Counted from the stretch's first letter, positions 37,144-55,756 are shown. The stretch is 64,000 nt of DNA from an uncultured Fibrobacteraceae bacterium (GCA_964436825.1 CAYTEO010000001.1:9035-73034), one strand, 5' to 3'. Numbers and translations are program-made. Notes: generated from the sequence alone by a model not told the origin.

Positions 37144-37243
37144 CTCTCTCGGCGCCATGGGCTCCATCCCATCTGCGATGCGACATCCGTGTCCGCAGGG
37201 GCTCCATCCCTGGCGTTCGTCGCTCCCTCATCCACCTGGACGC

Positions 37244-37705: not shown

Positions 37706-37721
37706 CGTCCCTGGAACTCAC

Positions 37722-37790
37722 TTTCACCACAAATCACCATAAATCACCACTCGATGCCGCGACAATACACCGCTCCCCCATGGGTGTCAA
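37722..37790 (-). promoter_or_regulatory. dcw promoter (TTGACA-17 nt-TATTGT) followed by three direct GGTGA repeats at 10-bp phasing (MraZ-box-like operator).
   Basis: Minus-strand sequence: TTGACAcccatgggggagcggtgTATTGTcgcggcatcgagtGGTGAtttatGGTGAtttgtGGTGAaagtgag, followed by the mraZ ATG. Confidence 0.45.
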
Positions 37791-37888
37791 CCCCCGAAAG
37801 CGATTTTTTTCGGGAGGGGGCAGACCACTGGCCATCAGCGTCAACCGATGGTCTTACAATGCGTTACGAGATCCGCAGGAAGTCGGGA

Positions 37889-39187
37889 TCAGCCGCGGGG
37901 GCGGCGGAGTGCTGCCGGCAGGAGGATCCCCGACCAGGGGAGCCCGCTGGCATGACGGAACCGGACCAGCATGACGGCGGCGCCGACGGAATAGGCGATC
38001 GTCGAGGCCCAGGCGGCACCGACCGCCCCGTGGGAGGGGATGAGGCAGAGGCCGGCGGCCAGGTTGACGGCCAGGGTCGCCAGGCTGGCCTGGGTGTTCC
38101 AGCCCGGACGGCCGCGGCCGATGAAATCGGCCGCCAGGACCGATCCCGCCGCGAAGACGACGATCCCCGGCAACAGGGCCCGCAGGGCGACCCCGGCACC
38201 GGCGTAGTCGGGGCCGAACAGGCGCGGGACGACCGCCGGCGCCAGCAGGAACAGGGGAACCGCCGCCAGTCCGGTCGCCCCCACGGCCAGGCGGACCGCG
38301 GCGGCCGATCGCTCGTCGCGGTCGCTCTCCGTCCCGGCCGCCGAGTAGACCAGCAGGGGCTGCAGGGCCCCCGGCAGCAACCAGAGCAATTCCCCCACGA
38401 GGACGGCCACCGAGTAGACTCCCACCACACCGGCCGGGTGGAAGGCGGCGACCACCGCCAGGTCGATGCGCAGGTGGAGCAGGGAGACGACCGCCGAGAG
38501 CTGTCCGAACCGGCCCGACCGCCAGAGGCGAACGATCACCTCGCGCAGGGCCGGCCGGTCCGGCTCCCCCGCCCCCTCGCCACCCTCCCGCAGGGCACGG
38601 GTGCCGAGAACGCTCAGGGCGACCGCGGCCGCCAGCTGGCTGCCGGCGAGGGCGACCAGGACGGCCCCCAGGGAGAGCCTTCCGGCCGCCAGCAGACCAC
38701 CCGCCAGCAGCAACCAGAACAGGGCCCGCAGGGCGCCCACCAGGGGCGGCTGGAAGATCCTGCCCGCGGCCGTCAGGTCGTAGGTGAAGACATCGCTGGC
38801 GATCAGGGCCGCCAGCAGCAGGACGGTCGGCAGGACGACGGTCCAGGTCCCGAGCTCGGCCAGCGGCCCGGCCAGGGCGGGCCAGGCCGGCAGCAGGAAC
38901 CGGCAGGCGGGCAGGGCGAGCACCATCACGCCGGCGATCCAGGCGATCTGGGCGGACAGGATGCTTCGCGCCGGCAGCGTTCCGCGACGCAACAGGGGCA
39001 CGGCGGCCAGCCCGAGCCCCCCGTTCAGCAGCGCCGCACCGGCGGTGGCCGCCAGGACGAGCAGGCTGTAGTGCCCCTGCCCCGCCGGACCCAGTGCCTT
39101 CGCCACGAGCCACCCGGCCACCGCCGCGGCCCCGGCCTGGACGAGCCTGGCGGCAAGGATCACCCCGCCCTGGCGGGCGAGCCTCAC
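37889..39187 (-). CDS. wzx: Polysaccharide/O-antigen flippase (Wzx, MOP superfamily).
   Basis: About 12-14 TM helices with a Wzx-like length. The likely GTG start overlaps the upstream FemAB-like stop (GTGA). Confidence 0.65.
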   Translation of the reverse strand: MRLARQGGVILAARLVQAGAAAVAGWLVAKALGPAGQGHYSLLVLAATAGAALLNGGLGLAAVPLLRRGTLPARSILSAQIAWIAGVMVLALPACRFLLPAWPALAGPLAELGTWTVVLPTVLLLAALIASDVFTYDLTAAGRIFQPPLVGALRALFWLLLAGGLLAAGRLSLGAVLVALAGSQLAAAVALSVLGTRALREGGEGAGEPDRPALREVIVRLWRSGRFGQLSAVVSLLHLRIDLAVVAAFHPAGVVGVYSVAVLVGELLWLLPGALQPLLVYSAAGTESDRDERSAAAVRLAVGATGLAAVPLFLLAPAVVPRLFGPDYAGAGVALRALLPGIVVFAAGSVLAADFIGRGRPGWNTQASLATLAVNLAAGLCLIPSHGAVGAAWASTIAYSVGAAVMLVRFRHASGLPWSGILLPAALRRPRG

Positions 39188-40212
39188 CGGCCTCTCCCCC
39201 GCCAGGCACGCGACCAGCGCACCGGGAACCATTCGCGGCGCCAGAGGCCGCGCATCACCTCCTGCGCCCCGAGCAACCGCTTGAAGTTGGCCACACCCCG
39301 CTGGCCGCCGTGGCCGCCCAGGTCGAGCCAGCGCGCCCCGCGGGCGCAGGCCTCCTGCAGGTCGCCCCAGACCAGGAGTGTCGCGGGAAACAGCTCCTCG
39401 CGTCCGGGCAGGGTGGCACCCAGCCAGGCCGTCACCGTCTCCCCCTCGTGCAGCAGGAGGTGACCGCCCAGGAACTCGTCACCGTGCCGGACGACCGTGC
39501 AGAAGACACGGCCGCCGGCGGCTGCCAGCAGGTCGGCCAGCAGCGCCAGCGGCGGTGGCGTGATCCCCCAGCGCCGGGCCGAGAGGGCGTAGACCGCCAG
39601 GAACGGTTCCGCCACGGCGGGATCGGTGGTCGTCTCCAGGCGGCAGCCCCGTCGCAGGGAACGGTTCCGCTCGTTGCGGCGGTTCTTGCGCAGCTGTTCC
39701 CGCTCGACGGCCTCCAGGCCGGGAGCCAGGTCGAAGACGGCGGCCGGGACCGTCTCGCGGCGCCAGCCCTCCGCCCGGAGATGGCCGGCCAGCGCACCGT
39801 CCCACGGCGGCGGCAGGGAGAGGGAGGCGCTCACCCTGCGGACACCCCTGCCCACCAGCCGGGCCCAGCCCACCGCGCAGGCGGCCACGACCTCTTCGCG
39901 CCGCCGCGCCGGGAGTCCCGCCACGAGCAGCGGCGCTCCGGAGAGGCCCTCGTGCTGCCCCTGGACGACCTCCAGGGGGCCCCGGCGGCGGACGATCCCG
40001 ATCATCCCGGCCAGGGGACGCTCCCCCTCGCTGACCAGCAGCCAGAGGGGACGCCGCCGCGGCAGGTGCCGGCAGAGGGTCGTCGCCCAGACGGGATCGG
40101 CATACAGGGACGGGTGCTCGGCGTCGGCGAGCAGGCGCTCCCACGCCCGCGGCGGGGAAGGCCCCTCGACCAGCGTCACCGACAGTTCCCCCAGCTCCAG
40201 GCGGTCGGGCAT
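39184..40212 (-). CDS. FemAB-like / GNAT-fold acyltransferase (BioF2/CelD-like).
   Basis: 342 aa. Fold-level resemblance to FemAB/GNAT acyltransferases of exopolysaccharide loci. GAGGGGGA RBS. Functional call is tentative. Confidence 0.45.
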   Translation of the reverse strand: MPDRLELGELSVTLVEGPSPPRAWERLLADAEHPSLYADPVWATTLCRHLPRRRPLWLLVSEGERPLAGMIGIVRRRGPLEVVQGQHEGLSGAPLLVAGLPARRREEVVAACAVGWARLVGRGVRRVSASLSLPPPWDGALAGHLRAEGWRRETVPAAVFDLAPGLEAVEREQLRKNRRNERNRSLRRGCRLETTTDPAVAEPFLAVYALSARRWGITPPPLALLADLLAAAGGRVFCTVVRHGDEFLGGHLLLHEGETVTAWLGATLPGREELFPATLLVWGDLQEACARGARWLDLGGHGGQRGVANFKRLLGAQEVMRGLWRREWFPVRWSRAWRGRGR

Positions 40213-40224
40213 GGTGCGTCCCCC

Positions 40225-42630
40225 TCAGCGGACCAGGGAGACCTGGCGGACGACCACGGCGCCTTCCCGGGCGATCCTGACCAGGTAGACCCCCGGCGCG
40301 GCCGGATCCCCGGCCAGGTTCCGGCCGTCCCAGAACGGCTCGTCGTTGGCCACGTGGTCGTTGCGGTAGACGACCTGCCCCTCCAGGTCGTAGATCACGA
40401 CGGCGACACCGCCGGTGATCGCGAGGGATCCCCACTGGACCGGCGCGACGACCCCTCCCACCCGCAGACCGGCATGTCGGCCGGGCCGGAAGGGATTGGG
40501 GTAGAGACGGACCGACGCCAGTGCCGAGCCTTCCTCCATGGCGGCGGTAACGGTCACCAGGACGGCGCCGTTCTCCCCGCTGACCAGGATCCGGCTGCCG
40601 TCGGGGGAGACGGCCGTCTCCCGGAACTTGCCCGGCGGCAGGCCGGCGATGATCGTCGGCGAGTAGAGCACGCCGAGGCCGGCGCGGAAGTAGTCGCCGA
40701 CCGACGTGTAGGGAACGATCGTCGTCGTCTCGCTCCCCTCGTCGACCCGCTCGATCCCCAGGTCGTGGCAGATCCAGGCGCTGCCGGTCCCGTCGACACA
40801 GACGTCCGACACCCCTTCCTGCATCAGGCCGGGCATGGCCGGATCCCGCTTGGCGTGGTACTCGCCCAGCATCTCGATCCCCACGCTGCCGGCGCCGAAG
40901 GAGAGGACACGGAAGTGGGCCAGTCCCGACCCGCCCGCCGCCCAGACGGTCCCGTCGTCGGCGACGGCCAGGGCCCGCGTGCCCGCGAAGCTGTAGAACG
41001 AGCCGGCCGGTGCCGCGTCCAGCCGCGCCCACTGGTCGTCCCCCGTCTCCAGCCAGGTGAGATCGTCCTCCGCGCCGCCGGCCAGGCCGTTGGGGTCCCA
41101 GAAGGCCACGCCCACGTTCTCGACGGCGAAGGCGATCCGGTCGGGCCGCACGACGACGGCGTCACGCACCGTCCCCCCGCCCAGGCCCGCGGCGTCGGTG
41201 GGCAGGTGGAGCCAGGCGCCGGGATCGTGGCCGCGGTCGGGATCGACCAGGACGTGGACCCCGCTGACGTCGCTGCACATCAGGACCGGCCCCGCCGGAT
41301 GGACCTGCAGGGCGACGATCCGATCATCCGGCAGGCCGGAGTTGGTGCGATCCAGGTGGACGAAGCGATCCGACCGGGGATCGAAGTGGATGACACCGCC
41401 GCTCTGGAACTGGCAGAACCAGACGTCCCCGTCGGGGCCGGCCGCGACCGAGAGGATCGGGCCGTCGTCGTCGAACAGGCCGGCGGAGTCGTTGTCCGCG
41501 CTGGCCAGGCGGGTCACCTGCTGCCAGGTATCGCCGTCGCCCCAGGCGATCCCCTCGGCCTGGCGCCCCCCCAGCCAGAGGGTCCCGTCGGAACCGACGG
41601 CCGCACCGTCGCTGTTGACGAAGAAGGGATCGTCGGTCAGGTACTGTGACCACTGGTCCCCGCTGCGACCGGCCACCCACGCGCGCGCCGCGTGCATGTT
41701 GTCGTCGGTGACGGGGGTGGTCCCCCCGACCCAGAGACGGCTGCCGGAGACCAGGGCGTGGGCGCCGTCGCGGGGCAGCGTGACCGGCTGCCAGGCCGCA
41801 CCGTCCCAGCGCCACAGGAGGAGGTCGGCGGCGCCGGCGGCGGCCAGGCACCAGAGGGTGTCGTCCTGGACGGCAAGGGCCGCCGCGGCCCGCCCCAGTG
41901 CCCCCACCGGGACCCAGTCGGCGTCGTCGGGAGCGCGCCGGTAGACGCCGGTGTCGGCGGCCGCCCAGACGGTGTCGGCCACGGCCAGCAGGTCACCGAC
42001 GTTGGTCCCGGCCAGCGACCCGCTCCAGTCCGTCAGCAGGTTGTCGCGCAGCAGGGAGACGCCGGCGTCGGTGCCGATGACCAGGTCGTCCCCGCGCAGG
42101 GCCAGGGCGGTGATCACGTCGCTGACCAGCCCCGGATCCTCGGTGGTGGTGTAGGTCCCGCCCGGCAGGCCGTTGCTGACGAGACCGAACCCGGCCCCGT
42201 CGGTCCCGTACCAGACGCGCTCCGTCTCACCGCGCACGGTCCCGGTGACGGCCGTCACGGCCAGGTCGGCGATGTTCGTCACCTGGCGGAAGACGGGACC
42301 GTCGGCGGCGAGCGTCACCCTGGTCAGGCCGCCGTCGCGTGTCGCCACCCAGAGGTTCGCCCCCGTCCAGGCCAGGTCCGCGATCCGCTGCCCCGACAGC
42401 CCGTCCCCCGTCGTCCAGCGCCGGACCGGGGCGAGATCGCCTGTCGCCAGGACGACGATCCCGCCGTCGGCGAGGCCGCCGTACAGCTCGCCCGAGACCT
42501 CGACCAGCGCGACGCAATCGCGGGCCCCGGGCAGGACGCGGAGGTCCACCGCGCCACGGGCCGGCAGCTGGAGCAGAAAGACCAGGGCGATCGCCAGGCC
42601 CAGCGGCGGGGCGATGCAGCGTCTTCTCAT
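40225..42630 (-). CDS. Secreted beta-propeller (two-component-regulator-propeller / Y_Y_Y-like) protein with a T9SS-type C-terminal sorting domain.
   Basis: Signal peptide MRRRCIAPPLGLAIALVFLLQLPARG. Many W/G-rich blade repeats. The C-terminal about 80 aa (LYPNPFRPG...VVIYDLEGQVV...GVYLVRI) match the Por/T9SS CTD pattern. ATGA overlap with the upstream GT2. Confidence 0.65.
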   Translation of the reverse strand: MRRRCIAPPLGLAIALVFLLQLPARGAVDLRVLPGARDCVALVEVSGELYGGLADGGIVVLATGDLAPVRRWTTGDGLSGQRIADLAWTGANLWVATRDGGLTRVTLAADGPVFRQVTNIADLAVTAVTGTVRGETERVWYGTDGAGFGLVSNGLPGGTYTTTEDPGLVSDVITALALRGDDLVIGTDAGVSLLRDNLLTDWSGSLAGTNVGDLLAVADTVWAAADTGVYRRAPDDADWVPVGALGRAAAALAVQDDTLWCLAAAGAADLLLWRWDGAAWQPVTLPRDGAHALVSGSRLWVGGTTPVTDDNMHAARAWVAGRSGDQWSQYLTDDPFFVNSDGAAVGSDGTLWLGGRQAEGIAWGDGDTWQQVTRLASADNDSAGLFDDDGPILSVAAGPDGDVWFCQFQSGGVIHFDPRSDRFVHLDRTNSGLPDDRIVALQVHPAGPVLMCSDVSGVHVLVDPDRGHDPGAWLHLPTDAAGLGGGTVRDAVVVRPDRIAFAVENVGVAFWDPNGLAGGAEDDLTWLETGDDQWARLDAAPAGSFYSFAGTRALAVADDGTVWAAGGSGLAHFRVLSFGAGSVGIEMLGEYHAKRDPAMPGLMQEGVSDVCVDGTGSAWICHDLGIERVDEGSETTTIVPYTSVGDYFRAGLGVLYSPTIIAGLPPGKFRETAVSPDGSRILVSGENGAVLVTVTAAMEEGSALASVRLYPNPFRPGRHAGLRVGGVVAPVQWGSLAITGGVAVVIYDLEGQVVYRNDHVANDEPFWDGRNLAGDPAAPGVYLVRIAREGAVVVRQVSLVR

Positions 42631-44648
42631 GGGGCTCTCCTGTTCTCAGGGGCAGTCGGGTTGATGCTAACGCGACCGCCGGGCGTCGTCCAGAGCCGGC
42701 GCCAGCGCTCGCCGCGCGTGGTGCCGGCCCAGGGACCGGTCAGACCGGGGCGACCGGGGGTGAGGCACCAGCTCTCCCCCGCCGCGACCGGTTCCTCCCC
42801 TGCCGACAGGGGCATGTCGCTCCAGAGGGAGAGCGCCCCCCGACGCAGCGCCGCCAGCAGGACGGGCTGCCGCCAGAGGGATCGCGGCCGGCCGTCGGCA
42901 TCCACGTGGACCGCCACCTGGCTTCCCTGGCCGGTCAGCGGCAGCACGACGACACGATCGTCGCGCGACCGACGGTTCACCAGCCGGCCCAGCATGCCGG
43001 CCGGCCAGAGCAGGACCCCCGCCGACAGGTCCGCCAGCCGCCTGCCGAGACCGGCCAGGGGATGTCCCTCGCCGGGGTCCAGGACCAGGCTCGGGAGCGG
43101 ACCGAAGGCCTCCCCCCTCCCGCCGGCGACGGCCAGGGAGGCGGCAGGGACCTGCCAGCGCAGGCGGACCCGGCGCCGACGCAGTTCCCGCAGCAGGCGC
43201 AGCTCGTCCGGATCGCCCGCCGGCCAGGCGAAGAAGACGACCTGCCCGATGCGGTAACGATCGACGACGGTCCCCATCTCCGCGCGCACTCCCAGCTGCG
43301 GCAGGGAGACCTTGCCGGCGACGATCCGGTCGTCGCCGAGATAACCCACCAGGTCCAGGCCCAGGCGGCGGGGATCCCCGACGGCGGCCAGCCAGTCGGT
43401 GAGCCCTGCCGGGGGATCGACCAGGAGGGTCCGTTCCAGGGAGAGGTGTCCCTTCGTCATGCGGCGACGCAACCGTTCCCAGAGCGTGCCGCCGAGACCG
43501 AGGGACAGCACCAGCAGGGGGAAGAACAACAGCAGGACGGCCCGGCTGTAGACGACCTGGTGGCTCAGATAGGTGCTGGCCAGCAGCAGCAGCGCGACCG
43601 TCCCCGCCTGCTGCAGGTCCTCCCGCCAGCCGGGGCGCCAGCGGCCGGTGCGCCGCCGGTAGCGGCCCCGCAGGACGAAGGTGACCGTCGCCAGCAGCGC
43701 GGCGTAGAGCTGCAGGCCGTGGTACTCCGACCACGGGAACAGCGGCTCCGCGAACAGCGGCTGCAGCAGGCGGCGCACCAGGTAGGCCCCCCCGAAGGCC
43801 AGGTTGACGGCCGCCATGTCCAAGAGCCAGGCCAGCAGGGTCCCCAGGGGGCCGGACCAGCGCTTCAGGGCGTAGACCAGCAGTCCCCATTTCTCGTAGA
43901 AGGAGATGAGGCTGGCCAGGTGGAGCCAGAAGCCGCGCCGGGTGATCCCGCCTGCGCTGGCGCGCCGGTGCCTGTGGACGAACCGGGCCACCGGCGTGTA
44001 ACGCACCTCGTAGCCGGCCTGCCACATCCGGTAGCACCAGTCCACGTCCTCGAAGTAGAGGAAGAAGCGCTCGTCCATGGGACCGACCCGCCGCAGCGCC
44101 TCGCGGCGCACCAGCAGGCAGCCGCCCAGGACCCAGTCGACGGGCCGGGCCGACAGGTGGTCGAAGTCCCGCATCAGGTGCAGTTGCACCGCCCTGGCCC
44201 GCGGGAAGAGCCTTCCGAGGATGGTCCGGCGCAGGACCAGCGTGGTGAAGGTATAGAAACGGCGGCACGACTCCTGGATCGAGCCGTCGGGGTTGAGCAG
44301 CTGGGGACCGATGATCCCCGCCCGGGGATGGGCGTCGGCGTCGGCCAGCAGGGCGTCGATCGCACCGGGCAGGACGACGATGTCGGGATTGAGGATCAGC
44401 GTGTAGTCGGCCTCGCAGAGGGCGAGCCCCGCGTTGACGCCGGCCGCGTAGCCCACGTTGCGGCTCTGGAAGAGCCAGTCGACGCCGGGGAACCGTTCCC
44501 GGACCGCCGGCAGGCCAGGGTCGTCGGAGGCGTTGTCGACGACGATGATGCGGTACTCGCAGGCGGGCGGGTTCTCCTGCAGCGACCCGAGGCAGCGGGC
44601 CAGATCGTCGCTCGTGTTGTAGTGGACGATGACGATCGAGAGCTTCAC
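42627..44648 (-). CDS. GT2-family glycosyltransferase fused to a polytopic membrane/Rossmann-like C-terminal region.
   Basis: N-terminal SIVIVHYNTSDDL...VVDNASDD...DVDWCYRMWQAGY GT2 motifs (DxD). Four or more TM helices and a C-terminal region with a weak PGLTGPW resemblance to sugar-phosphotransferases. GTG start. Confidence 0.65.
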   Translation of the reverse strand: MKLSIVIVHYNTSDDLARCLGSLQENPPACEYRIIVVDNASDDPGLPAVRERFPGVDWLFQSRNVGYAAGVNAGLALCEADYTLILNPDIVVLPGAIDALLADADAHPRAGIIGPQLLNPDGSIQESCRRFYTFTTLVLRRTILGRLFPRARAVQLHLMRDFDHLSARPVDWVLGGCLLVRREALRRVGPMDERFFLYFEDVDWCYRMWQAGYEVRYTPVARFVHRHRRASAGGITRRGFWLHLASLISFYEKWGLLVYALKRWSGPLGTLLAWLLDMAAVNLAFGGAYLVRRLLQPLFAEPLFPWSEYHGLQLYAALLATVTFVLRGRYRRRTGRWRPGWREDLQQAGTVALLLLASTYLSHQVVYSRAVLLLFFPLLVLSLGLGGTLWERLRRRMTKGHLSLERTLLVDPPAGLTDWLAAVGDPRRLGLDLVGYLGDDRIVAGKVSLPQLGVRAEMGTVVDRYRIGQVVFFAWPAGDPDELRLLRELRRRRVRLRWQVPAASLAVAGGRGEAFGPLPSLVLDPGEGHPLAGLGRRLADLSAGVLLWPAGMLGRLVNRRSRDDRVVVLPLTGQGSQVAVHVDADGRPRSLWRQPVLLAALRRGALSLWSDMPLSAGEEPVAAGESWCLTPGRPGLTGPWAGTTRGERWRRLWTTPGGRVSINPTAPENRRAP

Positions 44649-44658
44649 TCCGCCTCCC

Positions 44659-45366
44659 CTAGGGGATGCGCCGCAGGCGCAATGACCAGACGACCCACAT
44701 GGCCTCCAGGATGATCCGCTTGGACATCTTGGAGACGCCCACCTGCCGGTCGACGAACAGGATGGGAATCTCCTTGATCCGGAATCCCCGCTTCCAGCAG
44801 TGATAGTTCATCTCGATCTGGAAGGAGTAGCCGTCGCTGCGGATCCGGTCCAGGGGCAGCGCCTCCAGGACGTGGCGCCGGAAACACTTGAAACCGCCGG
44901 TGCTGTCCTTGATCGGCATCCCGGTGACCAAGCGGGCGTAGATGTTGGCCCCGACGCTCAGCACGAGCCGGCGCAGCGGCCAGTTGACGACCGTCACGCC
45001 GTTGAGGTAGCGGCTCCCCAGGACGACGTCGTAGTCCCGGATCTCCCGCAGGAAGGTGTCGATCGCGCGGGGGTCGTGGCTGAAGTCGGCGTCCATCTCG
45101 AAGATGGCCTCGGCGTCGGTCTCGCGCAGGGCCCACTGGAAGCCGGCGATGTAGGCTGCTCCCAGGCCCGCCTTCACCGGCCGCAGCAGCAGGTGGACGC
45201 GTTTTCCGTATTCCGACAGCGCGCGGACGACGTCCGCGGTGCCGTCGGGCGAGCTGTCGTCGACGACCAGGACCTGGAGCCGGGGGTCCCGCTCCAGGAC
45301 GGCGGGAACGATCCGGCCGATGTTCTCTGCTTCGTTGTAGGTGGGGATGACGACCAGGCTCTTCAC
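44659..45366 (-). CDS. Polyprenol-monophosphate sugar synthase (Dpm1/Ppm1-like GT2).
   Basis: VVIPTYNEAENI...VVDDSSPDGT...EMDADFSHDP...GFKCFRR is the canonical Dpm1-family motif set. The GTG start overlaps the upstream YfhO-like stop (GTGA). AGGAGGA RBS. Confidence 0.8.
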   Translation of the reverse strand: MKSLVVIPTYNEAENIGRIVPAVLERDPRLQVLVVDDSSPDGTADVVRALSEYGKRVHLLLRPVKAGLGAAYIAGFQWALRETDAEAIFEMDADFSHDPRAIDTFLREIRDYDVVLGSRYLNGVTVVNWPLRRLVLSVGANIYARLVTGMPIKDSTGGFKCFRRHVLEALPLDRIRSDGYSFQIEMNYHCWKRGFRIKEIPILFVDRQVGVSKMSKRIILEAMWVVWSLRLRRIP

Positions 45367-47840
45367 GGTCGGTCTTCCTCCTGGGCGTGCGGGGTCCGTG
45401 TCGGGGCGGGAACGCCGAGCACCAGCCAGAGCAGCACCAGCAGCAGGGCCGCACCGCCGACCGGCAGGGCCTTGTGCAAGGCGGGATCGCGGTACACGAA
45501 ACGGACCTCGTGCTCCCCCGCCGGCAGCGCCACGGCCCGCAGCAGGCGGTCGGCCCGCAGCAGGGCCGCCGGCGTGCCGTCGACGGTGACCCGCCAGCCG
45601 GGCAGCCAGAGGTCGGCCAGCACCAGGATCGCCGGGACATCGGCCCGGGTGCGCAGCGTCACCCGGTCCAGGTCGTCCTCCACGTAGGTGACCGGGGGCA
45701 GGACCGTGTCGACCGGTGTCGGTGCCGGGTCGGGGACCGCTTCCAGGCGGACGGTGTCCCGCCACCTGAGCCGACCCGCGGCGATCCCGTCCAGCAGGGA
45801 GGACAGGGGAGCCTCGGTCCGCTGCCAGCGGGTGACCAGGCGGGCCCGCGGCAACGCATCCCTGATCCGGTAGGCGACCAGGCCGTCGCCGACGACCGGG
45901 TCGGGGTCCACCGCCGCCCCCAGTTCCGCCAGGACGGGGAAGGCGTTCTCGGGCAGCGGCCCGTCGGTGACGAGGAGGGAGGCCCCCAGCCAGGAAGCCA
46001 GCCGCCCGGACGGCCGGCGCTGGTCGAAGAGACGCCGACGGACCTCCTCGGCGGCCGCGGGCTTGGCCGGATGGTACCCCCCCAGGGAGCGGACGCCGGC
46101 GAGCATCCCCTCGTTGGTGCTCGACGCACCGCCCAGGGGCCAGATCCGCTCGTGGCCCGCCTGCCCGGCAATCCGCTGCCAGACCGGATCGACACCCGGC
46201 CTGGTCGCCGCCGGCCGGGGTGCCAGGACCGCGGGGGCCGGCACGAGCCGCCCGCCGCCCTGGGTGGTCCGGGCCACGGCGTGGAGGCTTCGCTCGGGAT
46301 GGACGATCCGGCGGTCGACCGTCGCCAGGTCGACGACGACGAGCAGGACGACGGCCCAGGGCGCCAGCTCCCGCCAGCGACCGCCGCGCGGCAGCAGGAA
46401 CCGCCACCAGGCGCCGAGGGCGACGAGGATCAGGCCGATCCGCAGCAGGTCCGCGCGGTGGAGACGCCAGGCCAGTTCCAGCAGGGAACCGGCCGGCGCC
46501 GGCTTGCCGCCGTCACGGGCCAGGGCCGTCAGGTGGGCCGCGTAGCCGTCACGCGCCAGGCCCAGTCCACCCGCGGCCAGCAGGACGCCGACGAGCAGCA
46601 GGCCCATCCCGCTCCAGGCCCGCTGCCGCGCTCCCAGTTCCCGCCACCGGTCCAGGCCGACCGCGGCCAGGACGGCCACGGCGAAGCCGGTGAGCGTCAG
46701 GATCATCGACGGGACCCGGAACTTGTTGAAGTAGGGCAGGAAGCGGTAGCAGAGGTCGTACAGCGGCGGGAAGAAGTTGCCGCAGGCGATCAGCAGGCTG
46801 ACGAAGGCGGTTACCGCCAGGGTCGTCGTCACCCAGTCCCGCCTCCGCCAGAGCCCCAGCAGCGCCAGCCCCACGGCGACCAGGCCCAGGTAGTTGGGGT
46901 AGTCGGTGAACGGCATCCTTCCCTGGTAGGTCGCCTTGCCGAACCCGGCCGCCGACGGGAGCAGCAGGGTGTCCCATTCCCGTGGCGACAGGCTCCAGCC
47001 CGTGGCGTACTCGTACGCCGCCCCTCCCCCTTCGGCCGCCCCCCGCACCGACCAGCCGGCGTACTCGTGGACGGGCCACAGGAGGATCGCGCCGATCCCG
47101 CCGGCCAGCGCCAGGCTCGCCAGCAGCAGGAAGCTCGCACGCCGGAAGTCGGGCCAGCGCGCGGCGCCACTCCCGCGCCAGACGGCGATCAGCCGGCCCA
47201 GCCAGAGCAGGCCGACCAGCAGACCCGTGTAGTAGATGATCTGGATGTGGCCGCGCAGGACCTCCAGGCCGAACACCAGCGCCAACAGCGGCGCCGTCCG
47301 CCGTCCCCGGCCCTCGAGCAGCCCGAGGGTCAGTCCCGCGACCCACGGCAGGTACATGGCCGTCGCCAGCTTGGAACCGTGGCCGAAGGCGGCCCAGGCC
47401 GTCACCTTGGGGAACATCAGCCAGAGGGCGGCCCCCAGCAGCCGGCTCGCCGTCGACAGCCGCCACCGTCCCAGCAGCCAGTACATGCCCAGGCCACCGA
47501 ACAGCAGGTGTGCCAGCAGCCAGGTCAGGGGCGGGAAGCCCAGATGATCCTGCAGGAAGGTCAGCACCTCGCCGGGCGGATAGACGAACCGGGTGTAGGT
47601 GAGCGAGCCGAACGTCGGCATCCCCAGGAAGAGATACGGGTTCCAGAGAGGATAGTGTCTCTGCGCCAGGGCGGCGTTGCCGACCAGGGTGAACCCCAGC
47701 GCGTTGTTGCTGTCCGCGGAGCCGAAGACGGCCCCGCGCAGCAGCGGTTCCGGGTAGACGATCGCGAGCAGGACGAGCACCCCGGCCACCCCGGGGAGCC
47801 AGCGGACAAGCGCGGGATGTTCTCTCAGCGGGGATCGCAC
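45363..47840 (-). CDS. Large polytopic membrane protein, YfhO-like GT-C fold glycosyltransferase (825 aa).
   Basis: About 13 predicted TM helices in the N-terminal 450 aa, followed by a large extracytoplasmic C-domain. Size and architecture fit the YfhO/GT-C family. Family assignment is tentative. Confidence 0.5.
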   Translation of the reverse strand: MRSPLREHPALVRWLPGVAGVLVLLAIVYPEPLLRGAVFGSADSNNALGFTLVGNAALAQRHYPLWNPYLFLGMPTFGSLTYTRFVYPPGEVLTFLQDHLGFPPLTWLLAHLLFGGLGMYWLLGRWRLSTASRLLGAALWLMFPKVTAWAAFGHGSKLATAMYLPWVAGLTLGLLEGRGRRTAPLLALVFGLEVLRGHIQIIYYTGLLVGLLWLGRLIAVWRGSGAARWPDFRRASFLLLASLALAGGIGAILLWPVHEYAGWSVRGAAEGGGAAYEYATGWSLSPREWDTLLLPSAAGFGKATYQGRMPFTDYPNYLGLVAVGLALLGLWRRRDWVTTTLAVTAFVSLLIACGNFFPPLYDLCYRFLPYFNKFRVPSMILTLTGFAVAVLAAVGLDRWRELGARQRAWSGMGLLLVGVLLAAGGLGLARDGYAAHLTALARDGGKPAPAGSLLELAWRLHRADLLRIGLILVALGAWWRFLLPRGGRWRELAPWAVVLLVVVDLATVDRRIVHPERSLHAVARTTQGGGRLVPAPAVLAPRPAATRPGVDPVWQRIAGQAGHERIWPLGGASSTNEGMLAGVRSLGGYHPAKPAAAEEVRRRLFDQRRPSGRLASWLGASLLVTDGPLPENAFPVLAELGAAVDPDPVVGDGLVAYRIRDALPRARLVTRWQRTEAPLSSLLDGIAAGRLRWRDTVRLEAVPDPAPTPVDTVLPPVTYVEDDLDRVTLRTRADVPAILVLADLWLPGWRVTVDGTPAALLRADRLLRAVALPAGEHEVRFVYRDPALHKALPVGGAALLLVLLWLVLGVPAPTRTPHAQEEDRP

Positions 47841-47916
47841 GGTCCCTCCCGGTCCTCGCCCCCGGGACGACCGTCCGGGGAACTTCCAGTGTAACCGACG
47901 GTTGCCTCGGCGTCCA

Positions 47917-48849: not shown

Positions 48850-49813
48850 CGCCGGTCCGGTCCGCGGGGGCGATGATCTCCCGCACCATGTACTCGCTCT
48901 CGGGGTGTCGTCCCGCCACGACGAGCTCGGCCAGCAGGCCGAGGCTGATGAACTGGACGGCCATCAGCACGAGGGTCACCCCCAGCAGCATCAGCGGGCG
49001 GATCCGCAGCCCGTGGCCGGTCAGCCACCAGCCGAGGAACCAGGCCATGATCCCGCCGCCGACCGCCAGCAGGGCCACGCCGATGCGGCCGAACAGGTGC
49101 AGGGGCGAGGTGCCGCGGGAGGTCAGGAAGAGCATGGTCAGCAGATCCAGGAACCCGTTGAGGAAGCGGGCCAGACCGTACTTCGTCGTCCCGTACTTGC
49201 GGGGGTGGTGGCGGACGGGCAGCTCGGTGACGCGGAAACCGCCCCGGTGGACCAGGGCGGGGATGAACCTGTGCAGTTCCCCGTAGAGGCGGACGGCGGC
49301 CAGTGCCTCGCGGCGGTAGGCCTTCAGGCCGCAGTTGAAGTCGTGGAGCCGCAGGCCGACGGCCCGGCTGGTCACCAGGTTGAACAGGCGCGAGGTCTGG
49401 TTCTTGACGAAGCCGTCCTTGCGATCCTGCTTCCAGCCGGAGACCAGGTCGTACCCCTCCTCCAGCTTGGCCAGCAGCCGCGGGATCTCGGCCGGGTCGT
49501 CCTGCAGGTCGGCGTCCATGGTCACGACGTAGCGTCCCTGCGCGCGCTGGAAGCCGGCCGACAGGGCCGCCGCCTTGCCGAAATTCCGGGAGAAGCGGAT
49601 CCCCCGCACGGCCGGGTACCGGTCGGCGAGGCTGCGCAGGACCGCGGGCGTGTCGTCGCGGCTGCCGTCGTCGATGATCCAGACCTCGTGGTTCAACCCC
49701 AGCGGAGCGACCGCCGCCTCGATCCTCTCGACGAGTTCGGGCAGGGATTCCGCCTCGTTGTAGGCCGGGATGACGATCGACAGATCGCACCCGGCTGATC
49801 GCTCACGCCCCAT
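48839..49813 (-). CDS. Polyprenyl-phosphate glycosyltransferase (ArnC/GtrB-like GT2) with two C-terminal TM helices.
   Basis: LSIVIPAYNEAESL...IIDDGSRDDT...MDADLQDDP plus a C-terminal TM pair, as in ArnC/GtrB. Start at MGRERSAG. The upstream part of the ORF is an artifact. Confidence 0.75.
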   Translation of the reverse strand: MGRERSAGCDLSIVIPAYNEAESLPELVERIEAAVAPLGLNHEVWIIDDGSRDDTPAVLRSLADRYPAVRGIRFSRNFGKAAALSAGFQRAQGRYVVTMDADLQDDPAEIPRLLAKLEEGYDLVSGWKQDRKDGFVKNQTSRLFNLVTSRAVGLRLHDFNCGLKAYRREALAAVRLYGELHRFIPALVHRGGFRVTELPVRHHPRKYGTTKYGLARFLNGFLDLLTMLFLTSRGTSPLHLFGRIGVALLAVGGGIMAWFLGWWLTGHGLRIRPLMLLGVTLVLMAVQFISLGLLAELVVAGRHPESEYMVREIIAPADRTGDAD

Positions 49814-50846
49814 GACTGCGCTGTCTCCTCTGGACGGCCCACCGAACCTCCTCCCGCAGCCCGTCGCGGAAGGGGGTCGTGGCCCTGTACCCCAGTTCGG
49901 CTGCGATGCGGGAGGGGTCGGCCCAGGTATCGTGGACGTCGCCCTTCTCCCGCTCGCGGTACTCGATCCGCACCGTGACCTCCGGGGCCGAAACGGCCAG
50001 CAGGTCCTGCAGGATCTCCAGCGCCTCGGCCAGGGAGATCCGCGCCCCGCCGCCGACGTTGTAGACGGCCCAGCGGCGCGGTGTGGCCACGGCCAGCAGG
50101 TTGGCCCGCACGGCGTCGGCCACGAAGGTGAAGTCGCGCGTCTGGCTCCCGTCGCCGTAGACGATCCACGGCCGCCCGTCCAGGGCCGCGTCGATGAACT
50201 TGCGGAACGCCATGTCCGGCCGTTGCCGCGGCCCGTAGACGGTGAAGTAGCGCAGGCTCGTCGTCGGCACGCCGAAGTTCCCGCTGTACAGGACACAGAG
50301 ATGCTCCGCCGCCAGCTTGGTCACCCCGTAGGGCGAGAACGGCTGCGGCAGGGCGGTCTCGGCCACGGGCAGGTCCTCGCGGTCGCCGTAGACGGAGCTG
50401 GAGCTGGAGTAGACGAACCGCTCCAGGGTCGCGGCGACCTCGGGATGGCGGCACGCCTCCAGCAGGTGCTGGGTCGCCAGCACGTTCCGGTCGGTGTATT
50501 CCCGGAAGTGCCCTCCCCAGCTGGCCCGCACGCCGGCCTGGGCGGCCAGGTGGAAGACGAAGCGCCGGCCCCGCAGCAGCTCGACGGCGTCGAGATCCAG
50601 CAGGTCGCGCTCCAGGAAGGTGAAGCCGTCGCGCCCGGCCAGGGCCGCCAGGTTCTCCCGCTTCAGTCCCGGATCGTAGTAGTCGGTCAGGCAGTCGACT
50701 CCGGTGACCTGGCAGCCGCGATCGAGGAGGGCCTCGGCCAGGTGGCTGCCGATGAAGCCGGCACAACCGGTCACGACGACCGGCGTCCCCGGTGCCAGGA
50801 GCTCGGCCAGCCGCTGCTGCACCGCCGAACGCGCGTCATCGTTCAT
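49803..50846 (-). CDS. NAD-dependent sugar-nucleotide epimerase/dehydratase (SDR family).
   Basis: VVVTGCAGFIGSHL Rossmann motif and a YxxxK catalytic pair (YGVTK). 347 aa. Confidence 0.8.
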   Translation of the reverse strand: MNDDARSAVQQRLAELLAPGTPVVVTGCAGFIGSHLAEALLDRGCQVTGVDCLTDYYDPGLKRENLAALAGRDGFTFLERDLLDLDAVELLRGRRFVFHLAAQAGVRASWGGHFREYTDRNVLATQHLLEACRHPEVAATLERFVYSSSSSVYGDREDLPVAETALPQPFSPYGVTKLAAEHLCVLYSGNFGVPTTSLRYFTVYGPRQRPDMAFRKFIDAALDGRPWIVYGDGSQTRDFTFVADAVRANLLAVATPRRWAVYNVGGGARISLAEALEILQDLLAVSAPEVTVRIEYREREKGDVHDTWADPSRIAAELGYRATTPFRDGLREEVRWAVQRRQRSHGA

Positions 50847-53559
50847 GCTGCCCGTTCCCTCCCGTGGTCCCCGGGTCGGAGCCGCCGTCGCCCTGCTCCC
50901 GCTCCATCTCGGCGAGGGCCCGTTCCATGGCGGGGTCCTCCTGCCCGAAACGCTCCCGCCACGCCTCCGCGATGGCGCGACACCCCTGCAGATCGGCACG
51001 GTAGCGGGCCAGCTTGAACAGCATCCGGTACGGGAGCGGATCTCCGGGGTCCGCCGCCCGGCGGCGCTGCAGCCAAGCCTCGGCCAGGGAGTCGGCGCCC
51101 GCCGTGTAGAGGGTCTCGACGACCTGGCCGACGGTCCGTTCCTCGTCCAGCTGCGGGATCCGCCCGTGGATGGCGTCGAGATGGGCCAGGGCGGCAGCCG
51201 GCCGGTGGCGCTCGATCAGCAGCAGGGGATAGATGTCGGCGACCATGGGGAAGGTCGGGTCGAAGCTGCGGGCCATCTCGAAGGCCGCCTCGGCCTTGCC
51301 CAGGACGTGCTGGTAGAGGGAGTCGTCCTCGACGGGGATGGTCCGGGCCTGCTGCAGCATGGCGTAGCCGGCGCGGATCATGCCGGCCGGGTAGTTGCCC
51401 ATGAGGTTGCTGGTCGTCGTGTCGAAGAAGACGTCCCGGCGGCGCTCGCCGTCGTCGGTGTAGAGGCCCTCGAACTCCCAGGTGCGACCCTCGCCGGCGA
51501 GCTGGGCGGGATCGCCCGCCAGCAGCGGCGCGGGATCCAGGCTGTTGAGCTCGGCGAAGCGGCGGCGACGGCGGTCGCTGTCCCCGGTCAGGACCGCCCG
51601 GTAGTCGTAGACGCCGTACGCGTTGGCCAGCAGGCGCTCGGGATCGACGGTAGGGTTGCCGTCCTGCGACGCCCTGCCGGTGAAGCGGTAGGCCAGTCCC
51701 TCCATCCGCAGCATCCCGTAGTAGCGCTTCATGTTCTCCTGCGGGATCGTCACGGCGAAGTAGACCGGTCGCCGCCCGGCGTTCTGCAGGATGTTGTGGA
51801 CCACGTAGTCCTTGACCATCAGGTACTCGCGCCTGCCGGTCTCGGGGTCCTCGTAGATGACCGGCCGCAGTTCCTCCAGCTCGCGGTCGCTGTAGGAGAT
51901 CTTCACGGTGGGCGGGTAGCGCTTGAGCTGCTTGTTGTACCAGGCCAGGTTGACCAGGCTCAGGTTGACGATGGAGACGTCCTTGCGGAAGCCCTCCACC
52001 TGCTGGAGGTACCAGACCGGGAAGGTGTCGTTGTCGCCGTTGGTGAACAGGATGGCGTCGTGGTCCAGGCCGGCCAGCATGTTCCAGGCGTACTCCCGCG
52101 GCGCCCAGTTCAGGTGGCGGTCGTGCTCGAACCACTTGGTGTGGCCGGGCACGAGCAGCGGCAGCGCGGCGACCAGCACCAGGGCGCCGGCGACGACCTT
52201 GACGACCGGGCCGATGCGCACCGCCGCGGCCCCGCTCCGCGCGACCGCATCGCGACCCTTCTCCAGCAGGGGACCGGCCAGGTACCGCAGCAGGGCGGCG
52301 GCGCCGATCCCGATGAAGACGGCGAAGTAGAGGAAGCCGGCGAAGAAGAAGTAGTCGCGGTCACGGACCTCGTGGTCGGTGAAGTTCAGGTAGACGTTCA
52401 GGATGTCGGCGTTGATCAGGTAGTTGACCAGGATCAGCCACGCCAGAGGCCGGGCGCGCAGCAGGGCGTGGACGGCCCCCAGCAGTCCCAGGAAGACCGG
52501 CACCAGGAAGTTCAGCCAGCGGGCACCGCCGCCCAGGCGCGGGTCCAGGAAGGTGAACTGCTGGACGAGGTAGTGGTAGTAGTAGCCGATCTGCCAGAGG
52601 AAGTCGGCCTTGCGCTGGAAGGGGTTCATGGGCGGATACTGCTCCCGCCGCAGGACCTCCATGAGGGTGGCGAAGTTGTCCGGCTGCGACTGGTTGATGG
52701 CCGGGTCCAGCCCGGCGCGGATCAGCAGGTAGATGTGGACCGACAGGCCGAGCAGGAACAGCCCGCCCCCGATCAGGACCAGCGGCTTGCCGCCGTGGGC
52801 CCGCACCAGGGCCCAGGCCGCCAGGGCGACCACGGCTCCGACGAGGACGAAGTCGTCCTTGATCATGGTCGAGACCATGAACAGGCCGAGCACGGCGCCC
52901 AGGCCGAGCAGGTCGAGGACCTCGATCCGGCGCTCCCTGGCCAGCAGGACCAGGACGAAGATCCCGGGGAAGACGAGCAGCGTTCCCAGGTGGAACCCGA
53001 CGCCGAGGCCCAGCAGGTAGATCATCAGCAGCAGCAGCCGGTTGCTCGCCTCCCGGCGGCGCACGTCGTACCACTTCAGGGCCAGCCAGGTCAGGAAGGT
53101 GATCATGAACGCCGCCAGGCCGTAGACCTCGGCCTCGATGGCGTTGTTCCAGAAGGTGTGGCTGAAGGTCAGCATCAGGGCGCCGACCAGCCCCCCGGCA
53201 TGGGGCAGCCACCCCGCGTCGGGATCGGCCCGGCGGGCCAGCCGGACGATGACCAGGTAGGTGAACATGACCGCCAGGGCGCTGAAGAACCCGGACATGG
53301 CGTTGACGGCCCTGGCCGTGCTGCCCAGCACCGGTGCCAGCAGCAGGTCGAAGCAGCGGCCCACCAGGACGTACAGGGGCGTGCCGGGCTGGTGGGGGAT
53401 CCCCAGGATGTGGCTGGTGGTGATGAACTCGCCGCAGTCCCAGAAACTGAGCGTCGGCGCCATCGTCAGCAGGTAGACGATCCAGGCGAGCAGGAAGACG
53501 CCGCCGGCCAGCCGGGGCGTCCACCGATCCTGTCGAGTCGTCGTGGGCATGCTCTTCAT
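50836..53559 (-). CDS. DUF2723-family (TMEM260-like) GT-C membrane glycosyltransferase with a C-terminal TPR-like soluble domain.
   Basis: N-terminal PTLSFWDCGEFITTSHILGIPHQPGTPLYVLVGR signature of DUF2723. About 11 TM helices. A C-terminal 300 aa helical domain. 907 aa. Confidence 0.6.
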   Translation of the reverse strand: MKSMPTTTRQDRWTPRLAGGVFLLAWIVYLLTMAPTLSFWDCGEFITTSHILGIPHQPGTPLYVLVGRCFDLLLAPVLGSTARAVNAMSGFFSALAVMFTYLVIVRLARRADPDAGWLPHAGGLVGALMLTFSHTFWNNAIEAEVYGLAAFMITFLTWLALKWYDVRRREASNRLLLLMIYLLGLGVGFHLGTLLVFPGIFVLVLLARERRIEVLDLLGLGAVLGLFMVSTMIKDDFVLVGAVVALAAWALVRAHGGKPLVLIGGGLFLLGLSVHIYLLIRAGLDPAINQSQPDNFATLMEVLRREQYPPMNPFQRKADFLWQIGYYYHYLVQQFTFLDPRLGGGARWLNFLVPVFLGLLGAVHALLRARPLAWLILVNYLINADILNVYLNFTDHEVRDRDYFFFAGFLYFAVFIGIGAAALLRYLAGPLLEKGRDAVARSGAAAVRIGPVVKVVAGALVLVAALPLLVPGHTKWFEHDRHLNWAPREYAWNMLAGLDHDAILFTNGDNDTFPVWYLQQVEGFRKDVSIVNLSLVNLAWYNKQLKRYPPTVKISYSDRELEELRPVIYEDPETGRREYLMVKDYVVHNILQNAGRRPVYFAVTIPQENMKRYYGMLRMEGLAYRFTGRASQDGNPTVDPERLLANAYGVYDYRAVLTGDSDRRRRRFAELNSLDPAPLLAGDPAQLAGEGRTWEFEGLYTDDGERRRDVFFDTTTSNLMGNYPAGMIRAGYAMLQQARTIPVEDDSLYQHVLGKAEAAFEMARSFDPTFPMVADIYPLLLIERHRPAAALAHLDAIHGRIPQLDEERTVGQVVETLYTAGADSLAEAWLQRRRAADPGDPLPYRMLFKLARYRADLQGCRAIAEAWRERFGQEDPAMERALAEMEREQGDGGSDPGTTGGNGQHER

Positions 53560-53638
53560 CCTCGTCGTTCCGGTTGCCGTACAGCCATGGCCGCGGCGAA
53601 CCTAGCACATGGTGAGCAGGAGCAACAAGAACGGGTCG

Positions 53639-55752: not shown

Positions 55753-55756
55753 GCTG

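Follow-up and report, generated by a model that had tools for sequence, protein, structure and literature searches.

A PorZ-like double-propeller protein encoded in a conserved glycan operon of Krumholzibacteriia and its possible role in glycan attachment

In Porphyromonas gingivalis, PorZ binds the anionic lipopolysaccharide A-LPS, interacts with PorU in an A-LPS-dependent manner, and hands A-LPS over to PorU (PMC8545088). The linking sugar of the T9SS (type IX secretion system) is modified by VimA, an enzyme of P. gingivalis and T. forsythia that matches the model TIGR03019 and transfers a serine or glycine, and the amine of this added amino acid accepts the C-terminus of the cargo; in the same organisms, PorR belongs to the DegT-type aminotransferases and PorS to the Wzx flippases (PMC7468200). 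A recent review describes the T9SS as specific to the FCB superphylum (Fibrobacteres, Chlorobi, and Bacteroidetes; PMC12398890). Here, we analyze a stretch of DNA of 64,000 nucleotides (nt), deposited under an uncultured Fibrobacteraceae bacterium (GCA_964436825.1, CAYTEO010000001.1:9035-73034) and referred to below as the window, in which the gene for a secreted propeller protein of 801 amino acids (aa) overlaps the gene for a glycosyltransferase (GT) fusion protein. Both genes belong to an operon of Krumholzibacteriia-type genomes, and the Krumholzibacteriota are placed within the FCB group. It took two decades to identify, one by one, the P. gingivalis genes for PorZ, for the anchor glycan, and for the linking sugar, and to our knowledge porZ of this species lies outside any glycan operon.

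The propeller protein is a translationally coupled member of a class-wide Krumholzibacteriia operon that lies upstream of mraZ. Structure modelling shows it with the predicted architecture of PorZ: a signal peptide, two 7-bladed Reg_prop-type propellers, and a T9SS-type, immunoglobulin (Ig)-like C-terminal domain (CTD). By analogy, it may be a PorZ-type surface protein that handles glycans and is dedicated to the product of its own operon, a reading to which we assign a probability of roughly 45%. The features of the protein are as follows (AF2, AlphaFold2 model; HMM, hidden Markov model).

40225..42630, minus strand: PorZ-like secreted protein, 801 aa (open reading frame, homologues, AF2, Foldseek, profile match)
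42553..42630, minus strand: Sec-type signal peptide, aa 1-26, MRRRCIAPPLGLAIALVFLLQLPARG (basic n-region, hydrophobic core, A-x-G site)
41638..42552, minus strand: propeller 1, aa ~27-331, 7 blades (DSSP of the AF2 model, 28 strands)
40549..41637, minus strand: propeller 2, aa ~332-694, 7 blades (DSSP of the AF2 model, 28 strands)
40228..40524, minus strand: C-terminal beta-sandwich, T9SS type A CTD or FlgD_ig-like, aa 703-801 (AF2, HMMs, PorZ alignment)

The window has a G+C content of about 72%, and between 14.7 and 64 kb nearly all of its genes are on the minus strand. Both open reading frames (ORFs) marked in an initial annotation of this DNA were recovered at the same coordinates: the 801-aa ORF at 40225..42630, with an ATG start, and the 673-aa ORF of the fusion protein at 42627..44648, with a GTG start, both on the minus strand. 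The two were also called as genes on two independent Joint Genome Institute (JGI) metagenome contigs, which are 100% identical. The overlap of the propeller start with the upstream stop, also given there, spans 4 nt (ATG at 42630-42628, TGA at 42629-42627); the junction reads ...aGGAGAgccccATGAgaaga, and a GGAGA Shine-Dalgarno-like motif is found 5 nt upstream of the propeller ATG.

On inspection, the N-terminus of the protein, MRRRCIAPPLGLAIALVFLLQLPARG/AV, reads as a Sec-type signal peptide, as had been proposed; Kyte-Doolittle analysis places a hydrophobic segment at aa 4-30, and the AF2 model contains a helix at residues 10-19 with a low predicted local distance difference test score (pLDDT). 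Built on an alignment of homologues, the model of the entire protein has a pLDDT of 91.8 and a predicted TM-score (pTM) of 0.82. What had been described as many propeller blades comprises 56 strands before the CTD, which correspond to 14 four-stranded blades and make up two 7-bladed propellers by AF2 and DSSP. In the model these are followed by the CTD, which is the arrangement of PorZ. PorZ (5m11) was also the best match of the model in the PDB by Foldseek (E 6.7e-26), with a whole-length TM-score of 0.60/0.63 over 843 alignment columns, while the sensors of hybrid two-component systems (HTCS) BT4663, BT3049, and BT4673 ranked after it, with TM-scores of only ~0.33. The likeness to PorZ (PG1604) of P. 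gingivalis covers the signal peptide, the two 7-bladed propellers, the Ig-like CTD, and the length of ~780-800 aa; the two proteins differ in that they share ~15% identity and come from different phyla, and operon context suggests that the window protein, too, may be linked to a glycan. PorZ itself keeps its CTD and belongs to the attachment complex PorQ-U-V-Z.

Searches identified 52 full-length homologues of the propeller protein (~800 aa, 32-44% identity), most of which have faint or weak matches to PF07494 (Reg_prop). The family profile matched PorZ with a sequence E-value of 7.7e-17 and a domain E-value of 3.6e-13. This match is one colinear block, in which query residues 536-801 pair with PorZ 509-757 and which takes in the last blades, the CTD, and the linker between them; the last blades of propeller 2 are colinear with PorZ residues 509 to ~660. 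Matches of the same profile to HTCS sensors had E-values of 1e-24 to 5e-21 and consisted of several non-colinear blade-to-blade matches, and blades of propeller 1 individually matched the HTCS sensor propellers 4a2l and 3v9f. BT4663, BT3049, and BT4673 (two Reg_prop regions plus Y_Y_Y) thus share the blade family PF07494 with the propeller, but these sensors combine Y_Y_Y with a transmembrane helix, a kinase, a receiver, and a helix-turn-helix (HTH) domain, whereas the propeller has a CTD-like end of ~100 aa instead. The protein ends at the CTD; it has no further Pfam domains, such as the kinase, receiver, or HTH domains of an HTCS, and no hydrophobic segment occurs after the signal peptide, save one CTD strand. 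Because it lacks both a transmembrane and a kinase part, the protein has the architecture of PorZ rather than that of a sensor.

The C-terminal segment that had been singled out for its LYPNPF...VVIYDLEGQVV...GVYLVRI motifs forms a beta-sandwich at residues 703-801 in the model, with strands spanning 708-799, up to the extreme C-terminus. The protein therefore carries both an Ig-like terminal sandwich and an N-terminal signal peptide, and its CTD aligns residue by residue with that of PorZ, including the YPNP and G-x-Y motifs. The suggested check with TIGR04183 and PF18962 gave a divided outcome. The window protein itself is borderline (TIGR04183: 20.2 bits, cut-off 23, E 4e-4; PF18962: no match at E<=0.01; FlgD_ig: 23.3 bits, cut-off 27), while for the family the result is positive, with TIGR04183 matches in 46 of 52 homologues at E<=0.01 (best E 1.1e-8). 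Compared with the T9SS type A CTD (TIGR04183/PF18962, which overlaps PF13860 FlgD_ig), the end of the propeller protein is alike in position, size, motifs, and fold; it differs in scoring just under both curated cut-offs, and in belonging to a subfamily that is also found in tandem repeats.

To see where else this domain occurs, a profile of the CTD only was searched against 1.84 billion representative proteins at E<=1e-3, which returned 10,045 of them. Nine of these, which have their top-scoring copy at the very C-terminus and a length unlike that of the propeller family, were scanned, and all nine passed the TIGR04183 cut-off; a PHA (polyhydroxyalkanoate) depolymerase and CBM (carbohydrate-binding module)-type proteins are among them. 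As unrelated proteins, among them enzymes with a single copy at their very end, carry this domain terminally and pass TIGR04183, the CTD behaves like a modular terminal sorting domain. Within the window and 56 loci, a family-specific CTD HMM run on all ORFs found only the propeller orthologues and one other protein; the FG-GAP protein of the window (6823-8025) gave no match to it. The other protein is a ~1000-aa ORF with a C-terminal FlgD_ig/Por_Secre_tail match, located after a flippase gene in the Ca. Krumholzibacteriia metagenome-assembled genome (MAG) BB18 (L045, 17724-20747, plus strand), and is a second CTD-bearing gene that adjoins the glycan operon.

The operon comprises ~13 genes on the minus strand, just upstream of mraZ, and most of its junctions overlap or have gaps of <=12 nt. 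In a synteny survey of one genome per species, 50 loci were found, one per genome, all in Krumholzibacteriia-type MAGs. Several of these (L007, L008, L016, L021, L023, L027, L031, L035, and L052) are deposited as "uncultured Fibrobacteraceae" or "Gemmatimonadales", labels that are probably taxonomic mislabels. By tblastn, the gene order from the TMEM260-like gene to mraZ is kept in ~45 of the 50 genomes, which is essentially every locus that is long enough, and precomputed gene calls agree with this order. The adjacency of the GT fusion and the propeller recurs in ~45 genomes and is therefore not due to chance. In 38 of the 46 loci compared here, stop and start are -4 to +5 nt apart, and 14 of these 38 have the ATGA-type overlap. 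Synteny and junction distances thus bear out the proposed tie between the propeller and glycan-building genes, with the propeller gene as a conserved, translationally coupled member of their operon.

Each genome across the class encodes a single conserved orthologue of the propeller. Between relatives, the propeller has 31-42% identity and its neighbours 46-82% (tblastn), as one would expect if the propeller were exposed at the surface or matched to a ligand. What lies between the propeller and the Fem-type transferase gene that follows varies: seven loci, the window among them, have no gene there, and the others have a DegT aminotransferase, a PglF-like 4,6-dehydratase, or both, which suggests lineage-specific variation of an amino sugar in the glycan of the operon.

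These data bear on another explanation, that the protein is ordinary T9SS cargo: a secreted or surface-anchored protein, lectin-like and possibly glycan-trimming, that acts on the polymer of the operon, for instance to control chain length, retain the capsule, or organize the matrix, without helping to attach other proteins. A signal peptide and a CTD are what such cargo would carry, the Reg_prop propellers of HTCS bind oligosaccharides (PMC5121618), 18 of 52 members of the family weakly match the propeller glycosyl-hydrolase family NF045728 (best E 1.5e-6), and by HMM the protein is no PorZ equivalog. Yet its whole-length fold and domain arrangement are nearest to PorZ, a single class-wide orthologue per genome resembles a machine component rather than variable cargo, and no catalytic family scored above its own threshold on the propeller. 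We consider this explanation unlikely, but not negligibly so. The "T9SS cargo" label of the initial annotation is probably the wrong category, and if the analogy with PorZ holds, component or adaptor would be the better word; an enzymatic role in glycan processing, also raised there, found no favour in any line tested.

Two genes complete the operon downstream of the propeller.

39184..40212, minus strand: Fem-type (PF13480) aminoacyl-tRNA-dependent transferase, VimA-like, 342 aa (Pfam, NCBIfam, profile against the PDB)
37889..39232, minus strand: flippase of the multidrug/oligosaccharidyl-lipid/polysaccharide (MOP) family, Wzx/MurJ-like, 447 aa, last gene of the operon (weak MurJ match, hydrophobicity)

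The first of these starts 12 nt downstream of the propeller, and by sequence its product belongs to the Fem/aminoacyl-tRNA-dependent transferases, matching PF13480 (Acetyltransf_6) at 1.6e-20 (74.2 bits against a cut-off of 22). It also matches TIGR03019 (3.2e-7), and at 29.7 bits against a cut-off of 260 it is not an equivalog of that model. The single sequence had no match in the PDB with phmmer, so that a family profile was needed; this profile gave E-values of 1.2e-13 for 9wqy, an aminoacyl-tRNA-dependent peptide synthase, and of 7e-5 for FemX. The protein thus resembles VimA and FemX both in its PF13480/TIGR03019-type sequence and in its aminoacyl-tRNA-dependent profile matches. The flippase has ~12 hydrophobic segments, and its orthologue has a weak Polysacc_synt match. 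In P. gingivalis, the vim/wbp genes relate to porR and porS as the Fem-type gene adjoins DegT and Wzx genes in relatives of the window (PMC7468200). A VimE-like deacetylase and a WbpS-like amidotransferase were not seen in the operon. By analogy, the pairing of a Fem-type transferase with a flippase corresponds to the enzyme logic of T9SS linking-sugar synthesis in P. gingivalis (PMC7468200). On these likenesses, the Krumholzibacteriia block is one that unites classes of genes scattered in P. gingivalis: a PorZ-like protein, an optional dehydratase and/or DegT aminotransferase, a Fem-type enzyme, and a Wzx-like flippase.

The parallel with the linking sugar would fall if the transferase and the flippase served peptidoglycan instead, by aminoacylating the side chain of lipid II and flipping it. 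The genes have mraZ and the division and cell wall (dcw) cluster as their immediate downstream neighbours, the flippase weakly matches MurJ, and FemX acts on a peptidoglycan precursor. We nevertheless regard this alternative as improbable. A promoter-like site separates the flippase from mraZ; the best PDB match of the transferase is the peptide synthase and not FemX; and at 447 aa, the flippase is Wzx-sized. In addition, most relatives have a dehydratase and/or DegT gene between the propeller and the Fem-type gene, and because these are inserted next to it, the Fem-type gene is tied to amino-sugar chemistry.

With the propeller read as a PorZ-type protein, the following mechanism can be proposed. 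The propeller would reach the cell surface through its CTD and bind there the glycan made by its own operon; like PorZ, it would present this glycan to a PorU-type sortase, leading to covalent anchoring of CTD proteins. Acting like VimA, the Fem-type enzyme would equip the linking sugar with a nucleophilic amino-acid "handle", and the inactive part of the GT fusion (see below) would most likely dock its glycosyltransferase to the membrane and the lipid carrier. We hold the full chain, from export by the CTD through glycan binding and presentation to a PorU-type sortase to the Fem-type handle, only tentatively. The same applies to the view that one operon both builds an aminoacylated anchor glycan and encodes its PorZ-type adaptor, forming a self-contained attachment-glycan module, which we rate as doubtful in equal measure. 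A dedicated anchor-glycan pathway was one of the options put forward in the initial annotation; it has gained from the PorZ-like propeller, the coupling within the operon, and the Fem/VimA-type and Wzx-like neighbours, and is as yet unproven.

A number of observations weigh against a PorZ-type role. On the window protein, the PorZ equivalog model NF052228 scores 31.5 bits, where its cut-off is 260, and the match spans only profile positions 661-743, which is the CTD part. All 52 relatives match this model as well, weakly (best E 3.4e-15); we rejected these matches as PorZ-specific, as unrelated CTD proteins match the same C-terminal part of the model, so that they are no evidence for PorZ identity. 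The blades are closer in sequence to the HTCS sensor propellers (E 1e-24) than to PorZ, and PorZ was included in the training set of AF2, which could have biased the predicted domain arrangement. The CTD of the window protein remains below the thresholds of the curated models. Moreover, some giant proteins contain a CTD-like fold in 5-20 tandem copies within the chain; since the fold is reused there as an internal structural repeat, it is not exclusively a sorting signal. Pfam and NCBIfam scans found none of porK/L/M/N (GldK/L/M/N), porU, porV, or sov (SprA) in the 64-kb window, and the literature searched held nothing that links Krumholzibacteriota with the T9SS. The operon abuts the dcw cluster, where its Fem-type enzyme and flippase could serve peptidoglycan. 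Finally, in a deep-branching locus (L058, ERZ25039549 contig_7410), the operon is intact without the propeller, which makes the linkage between propeller and operon a rule rather than an obligation. The most divergent propeller homologue (L004/L047, 32% identity) is found on another contig of the same record (contig_35764).

Two side observations belong here. The giant proteins with CTD repeats (P0176, P0177, P0217, and others) are 1,300-4,900 aa long, with 8-20 internal copies. The divergent homologue of L004/L047 adjoins a microcompartment locus (BMC/EutN/aldehyde dehydrogenase), near an FG-GAP protein with Por_Secre_tail.

Several of the above points would fit a periplasmic scaffold that works without a T9SS, with the C-terminal Ig-like domain as a structural FlgD_ig or Y_Y_Y-like module. 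Such a protein would chaperone or position a lipid-linked glycan for the YfhO-like and TMEM260-like GT-C enzymes of the operon, or for export. The sub-threshold CTD and the internal repeats of its fold are consistent with this, as are the periplasmic HTCS sensors, which share the three-domain layout and have the stronger similarity in blade sequence, and the tight coupling of the propeller gene to membrane enzymes. What argues against it is that the domain at the extreme C-terminus aligns with the CTD of PorZ, YPNP and G-x-Y included, that the nearest non-orthologous copies of the CTD are terminal and pass TIGR04183, and that the propeller has diverged more rapidly than the proteins encoded around it, in keeping with surface exposure. 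We therefore judge the scaffold to be rather improbable.

The protein encoded upstream of the propeller consists of the following parts (GT2, glycosyltransferase family 2; PGT, phosphoglycosyl transferase).

42627..44648, minus strand: GT2 joined to an apparently catalytically degenerate WbaP-type large PGT, 673 aa (Pfam, NCBIfam, AF2)
43929..44648, minus strand: GT2 (GT-A) domain, aa 1-240, WbbL-like, motifs intact (HMMs, motifs, Foldseek GT-A)
43080..43856, minus strand: bundle of four transmembrane helices (aa ~265-398) and PF13727 domain (aa ~404-523) (AF2, family Pfam)
42630..43079, minus strand: putative remnant of a monotopic PGT catalytic domain, aa ~524-673 (segment profile against the PDB, weak Pfam)

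The N-terminal GT2 reported in the initial annotation is well supported: Pfam GT2 (PF00535) matches at 6.8e-19 (68.8 bits against a cut-off of 23.3) and the rhamnosyltransferase model TIGR01556 at 2.7e-14. Its motifs are in place, with a DxD-type LNPD in which N87, P88, and D89 are invariant, and EDVDWCYRMW at residues 200-209; D38, D89, E200, D201, and D203 are invariant in 58 homologues of the fusion. A Foldseek search with the model of the fusion returned GT-A enzymes only.

Dissection of the remainder by structure prediction gave an affiliation to the region that had been left as unclear: a WbaP-type bundle of four transmembrane helices, a PF13727 domain, and a degenerate catalytic domain. 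In the AF2 model (pLDDT 80.8), helices at 265-294, 306-326, 341-361, and 369-398 precede a beta-alpha domain, with a Rossmann-like domain at ~404-523 and a long helix, a hairpin, and short helices at ~524-673. TIGR03025 matches aa 276-548 with profile positions 2-270 of 445 (E 7.6e-15). Among the 58 family members, GT2 and CoA_binding_3 (PF13727, best E 4.4e-11) were each detected in all, and Bac_transf (PF02397) in 10. The helix bundle with PF13727 is the accessory module of large PGTs such as WbaP, and is shared by PglF-like dehydratases (PMC10942596). The fusion has the same order as large PGTs (WbaP/WcaJ, 8T53), with the N-terminal four-helix bundle and PF13727 followed by a PGT-type C-terminal segment; the catalytic domain is intact in those enzymes, and shortened and degenerate in the fusion. 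Bifunctional PGTs (Bi-PGTs) are a known class in which a PGT is fused to another glycan enzyme, as in the fusion described here.

An intact PF02397 catalytic domain with the Asp-Glu dyad of PGTs (PMC10942596) appears to be absent from the fusion. PF02397 could not be detected in the window protein even at E<=10, and in the 10 of 58 relatives in which it was found it is weak (best E 3.8e-4). When a profile of aa 524-673 was compared with the PDB, 7 of 8 matches at E<=10 were PGTs, which is weak support: five chains of WbaP, including 8t53 (E 0.031), and two of PglC. All PGT alignments of the segment fall at LKGDMSLVGPRP...KPGMTGLWQ, and we take the catalytic Asp-Glu dyad of PF02397 to lie just upstream of the KPGMTGLWQ-type motif. 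In the register of the E 0.03 alignment, the dyad position reads Arg-Gln in the window protein and Trp-Gln in most relatives; its Gln is invariant in the fusion family, while GPRP is partly lost. Judged by this motif register, the dyad appears to have been lost. With a catalytic domain that is shortened and degenerate, and Trp-Gln or Arg-Gln at the dyad position, the fusion is probably not a PGT, and its active enzyme is probably the N-terminal GT2. With moderate confidence, we interpret the protein as a GT2 joined to a large-PGT scaffold that has no catalytic activity left.

A PorZ-like protein, a Bi-PGT/large-PGT fusion, and a Fem/VimA-type enzyme are all of known kinds, and their combination is not described in the literature we searched. 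If the interpretation as an attachment-glycan module is true, it would be the first such module outside Bacteroidota and the first adaptor genetically hard-wired to the biosynthesis of its own ligand, with a complete anchor pathway that could be read off at a single locus. In that pathway, the fusion of a GT2 with a dead WbaP-like PGT would then be a new pseudo-enzyme scaffold. A class-wide operon of this kind would also lend comparative-genomic support to the "glycan shuttle" model of PorZ, and it would predict a full set of anchor-glycan genes for an uncultured lineage, compact enough for heterologous reconstitution. Independently of this, the GT2 with its putatively inactivated large PGT would cleanly exemplify a pseudo-enzyme that serves as a scaffold when glycoconjugates are made, and the fixed place of the operon next to mraZ hints at co-ordinated synthesis of envelope glycan and cell wall.

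The other features of the operon are listed from its upstream end (SAM, S-adenosylmethionine).

55757-56542, minus strand: SAM methyltransferase (Pfam)
54622-55752, minus strand: GT4 glycosyltransferase (Pfam)
53639..54625, minus strand: LPG_synthase_TM flippase-like membrane protein, 328 aa (PF03706, 4.2e-31)
50836..53559, minus strand: TMEM260-like (DUF2723) GT-C membrane glycosyltransferase, 907 aa (PF11028, 5.9e-51; conserved across loci)
49803..50846, minus strand: NAD-dependent sugar epimerase/dehydratase, 347 aa (conserved, 59-69% identity)
48839-49813, minus strand: GT2, 324 aa (Pfam on identical contig; 52-70% identity, as for the next)
47917-48849, minus strand: GT2, 310 aa (Pfam on identical contig; 52-70% identity)
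45363..47840, minus strand: YfhO-like (GT-C type) polytopic membrane protein, 825 aa (weak YfhO match, at least 10 hydrophobic segments)
44659..45366, minus strand: Dpm1/CsbB/PpgS-like GT2, polyprenyl-phosphate-sugar synthase, 235 aa (Pfam GT2, 6.5e-29; NF058614 PpgS, 1.4e-19)
37762..37790, minus strand: promoter-like site TTGACA-17-TATTGT (between the flippase and mraZ)

Judged by their families, these genes could form two routes. The first would be cytoplasmic and use a polyprenyl-diphosphate carrier, with the GT4, the two GT2s, the GT2/dead-PGT fusion, the Fem-type transferase, and the Wzx-like flippase, joined in many relatives by the PglF-like dehydratase and/or the DegT aminotransferase. 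The second would carry out extracytoplasmic glycosylation, with the Dpm1/CsbB-like synthase, the YfhO-like and TMEM260-like GT-C proteins, and the LPG_synthase_TM protein. An arrangement of csbB and yfhO is known from teichoic-acid glycosylation in Bacillus and Listeria, where it is part of a three-component extracytoplasmic system. The operon shares with it a Dpm1-like GT2 gene that overlaps a YfhO-like gene (by 4 nt) and a nearby candidate for the small flippase; it differs in its Gram-negative-type host and in having a second GT-C, the TMEM260-like protein. The Dpm1-like GT2 is the best-conserved neighbour (72-82% identity), and the YfhO-like orthologue in L058 has a stronger match to PF09586. 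The start codon of the LPG_synthase_TM gene, whose product resembles the flippase domain of MprF, overlaps the GT4 stop as ATGA, and in L057 and L058 the gene likewise precedes the one for the TMEM260-like protein. An exact-sequence look-up of the GT4 protein returned no record.

The second route raises the question whether the propeller is itself a substrate, that is, a surface glycoprotein, of the kind of an S-layer protein or an adhesin, to which the TMEM260-like GT-C of the operon, the YfhO-like one, or both would attach O-glycans. Human TMEM260 is a protein O-mannosyltransferase that acts on Ig-like IPT domains (PMC10214176), and the gene of the Dpm1-like donor synthase adjoins the GT-C genes. 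The sequences of the propeller family give little sign of this: the sequon D(S/T)(A/I/L/V/M/T), which is that of Bacteroidota and may not be that of the host, occurs on average 1.6 times, against 3.4 times in shuffled sequences, no alignment column conserves it, and a Ser/Thr-rich region is not evident. Together with the operon of L058, which is intact without the propeller, this leaves the propeller a very improbable substrate.

A few remarks concern gene calls in the window. The longest mechanical ORF at 53556-54632 (minus strand, 358 aa, TTG start) was rejected as a gene; its third-position GC content of 0.49 and its Arg/Pro/Gly-rich translation mark it as a wrong frame, and the real gene is the one at 53639-54625 (minus strand). 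The FG-GAP ORF at 6823-8025 (minus strand) is listed with 400 aa, of which the first ~130 residues look non-coding, and the true start of this FG-GAP-repeat protein is probably near MRGQRH.

Upstream of the operon lie nusB, rib genes, ftsY, and smc, and downstream of it a standard dcw cluster through ftsZ. The nusB stop overlaps the start of the methyltransferase gene by 4 nt, so that the glycan genes run without a gap from nusB and the riboflavin genes (54622-57009, minus strand), and the transcription unit may start well upstream of the glycan genes. Terminator-like sites in 37000-56999 showed no excess over chance. The promoter-like site at 37762..37790 is unique in this range (0.4 expected) and is located in the 183-nt gap before mraZ; if it is the start of the dcw unit, it marks the end of the glycan operon. 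Within the dcw cluster, a small gene with a STAS_2 domain (36769-37167, minus strand) lies between mraZ and rsmH, as it also does in L001, L003, L005, L057, and L058; apart from this unusual insertion, the order mraZ-rsmH-ftsL-ftsI is canonical.

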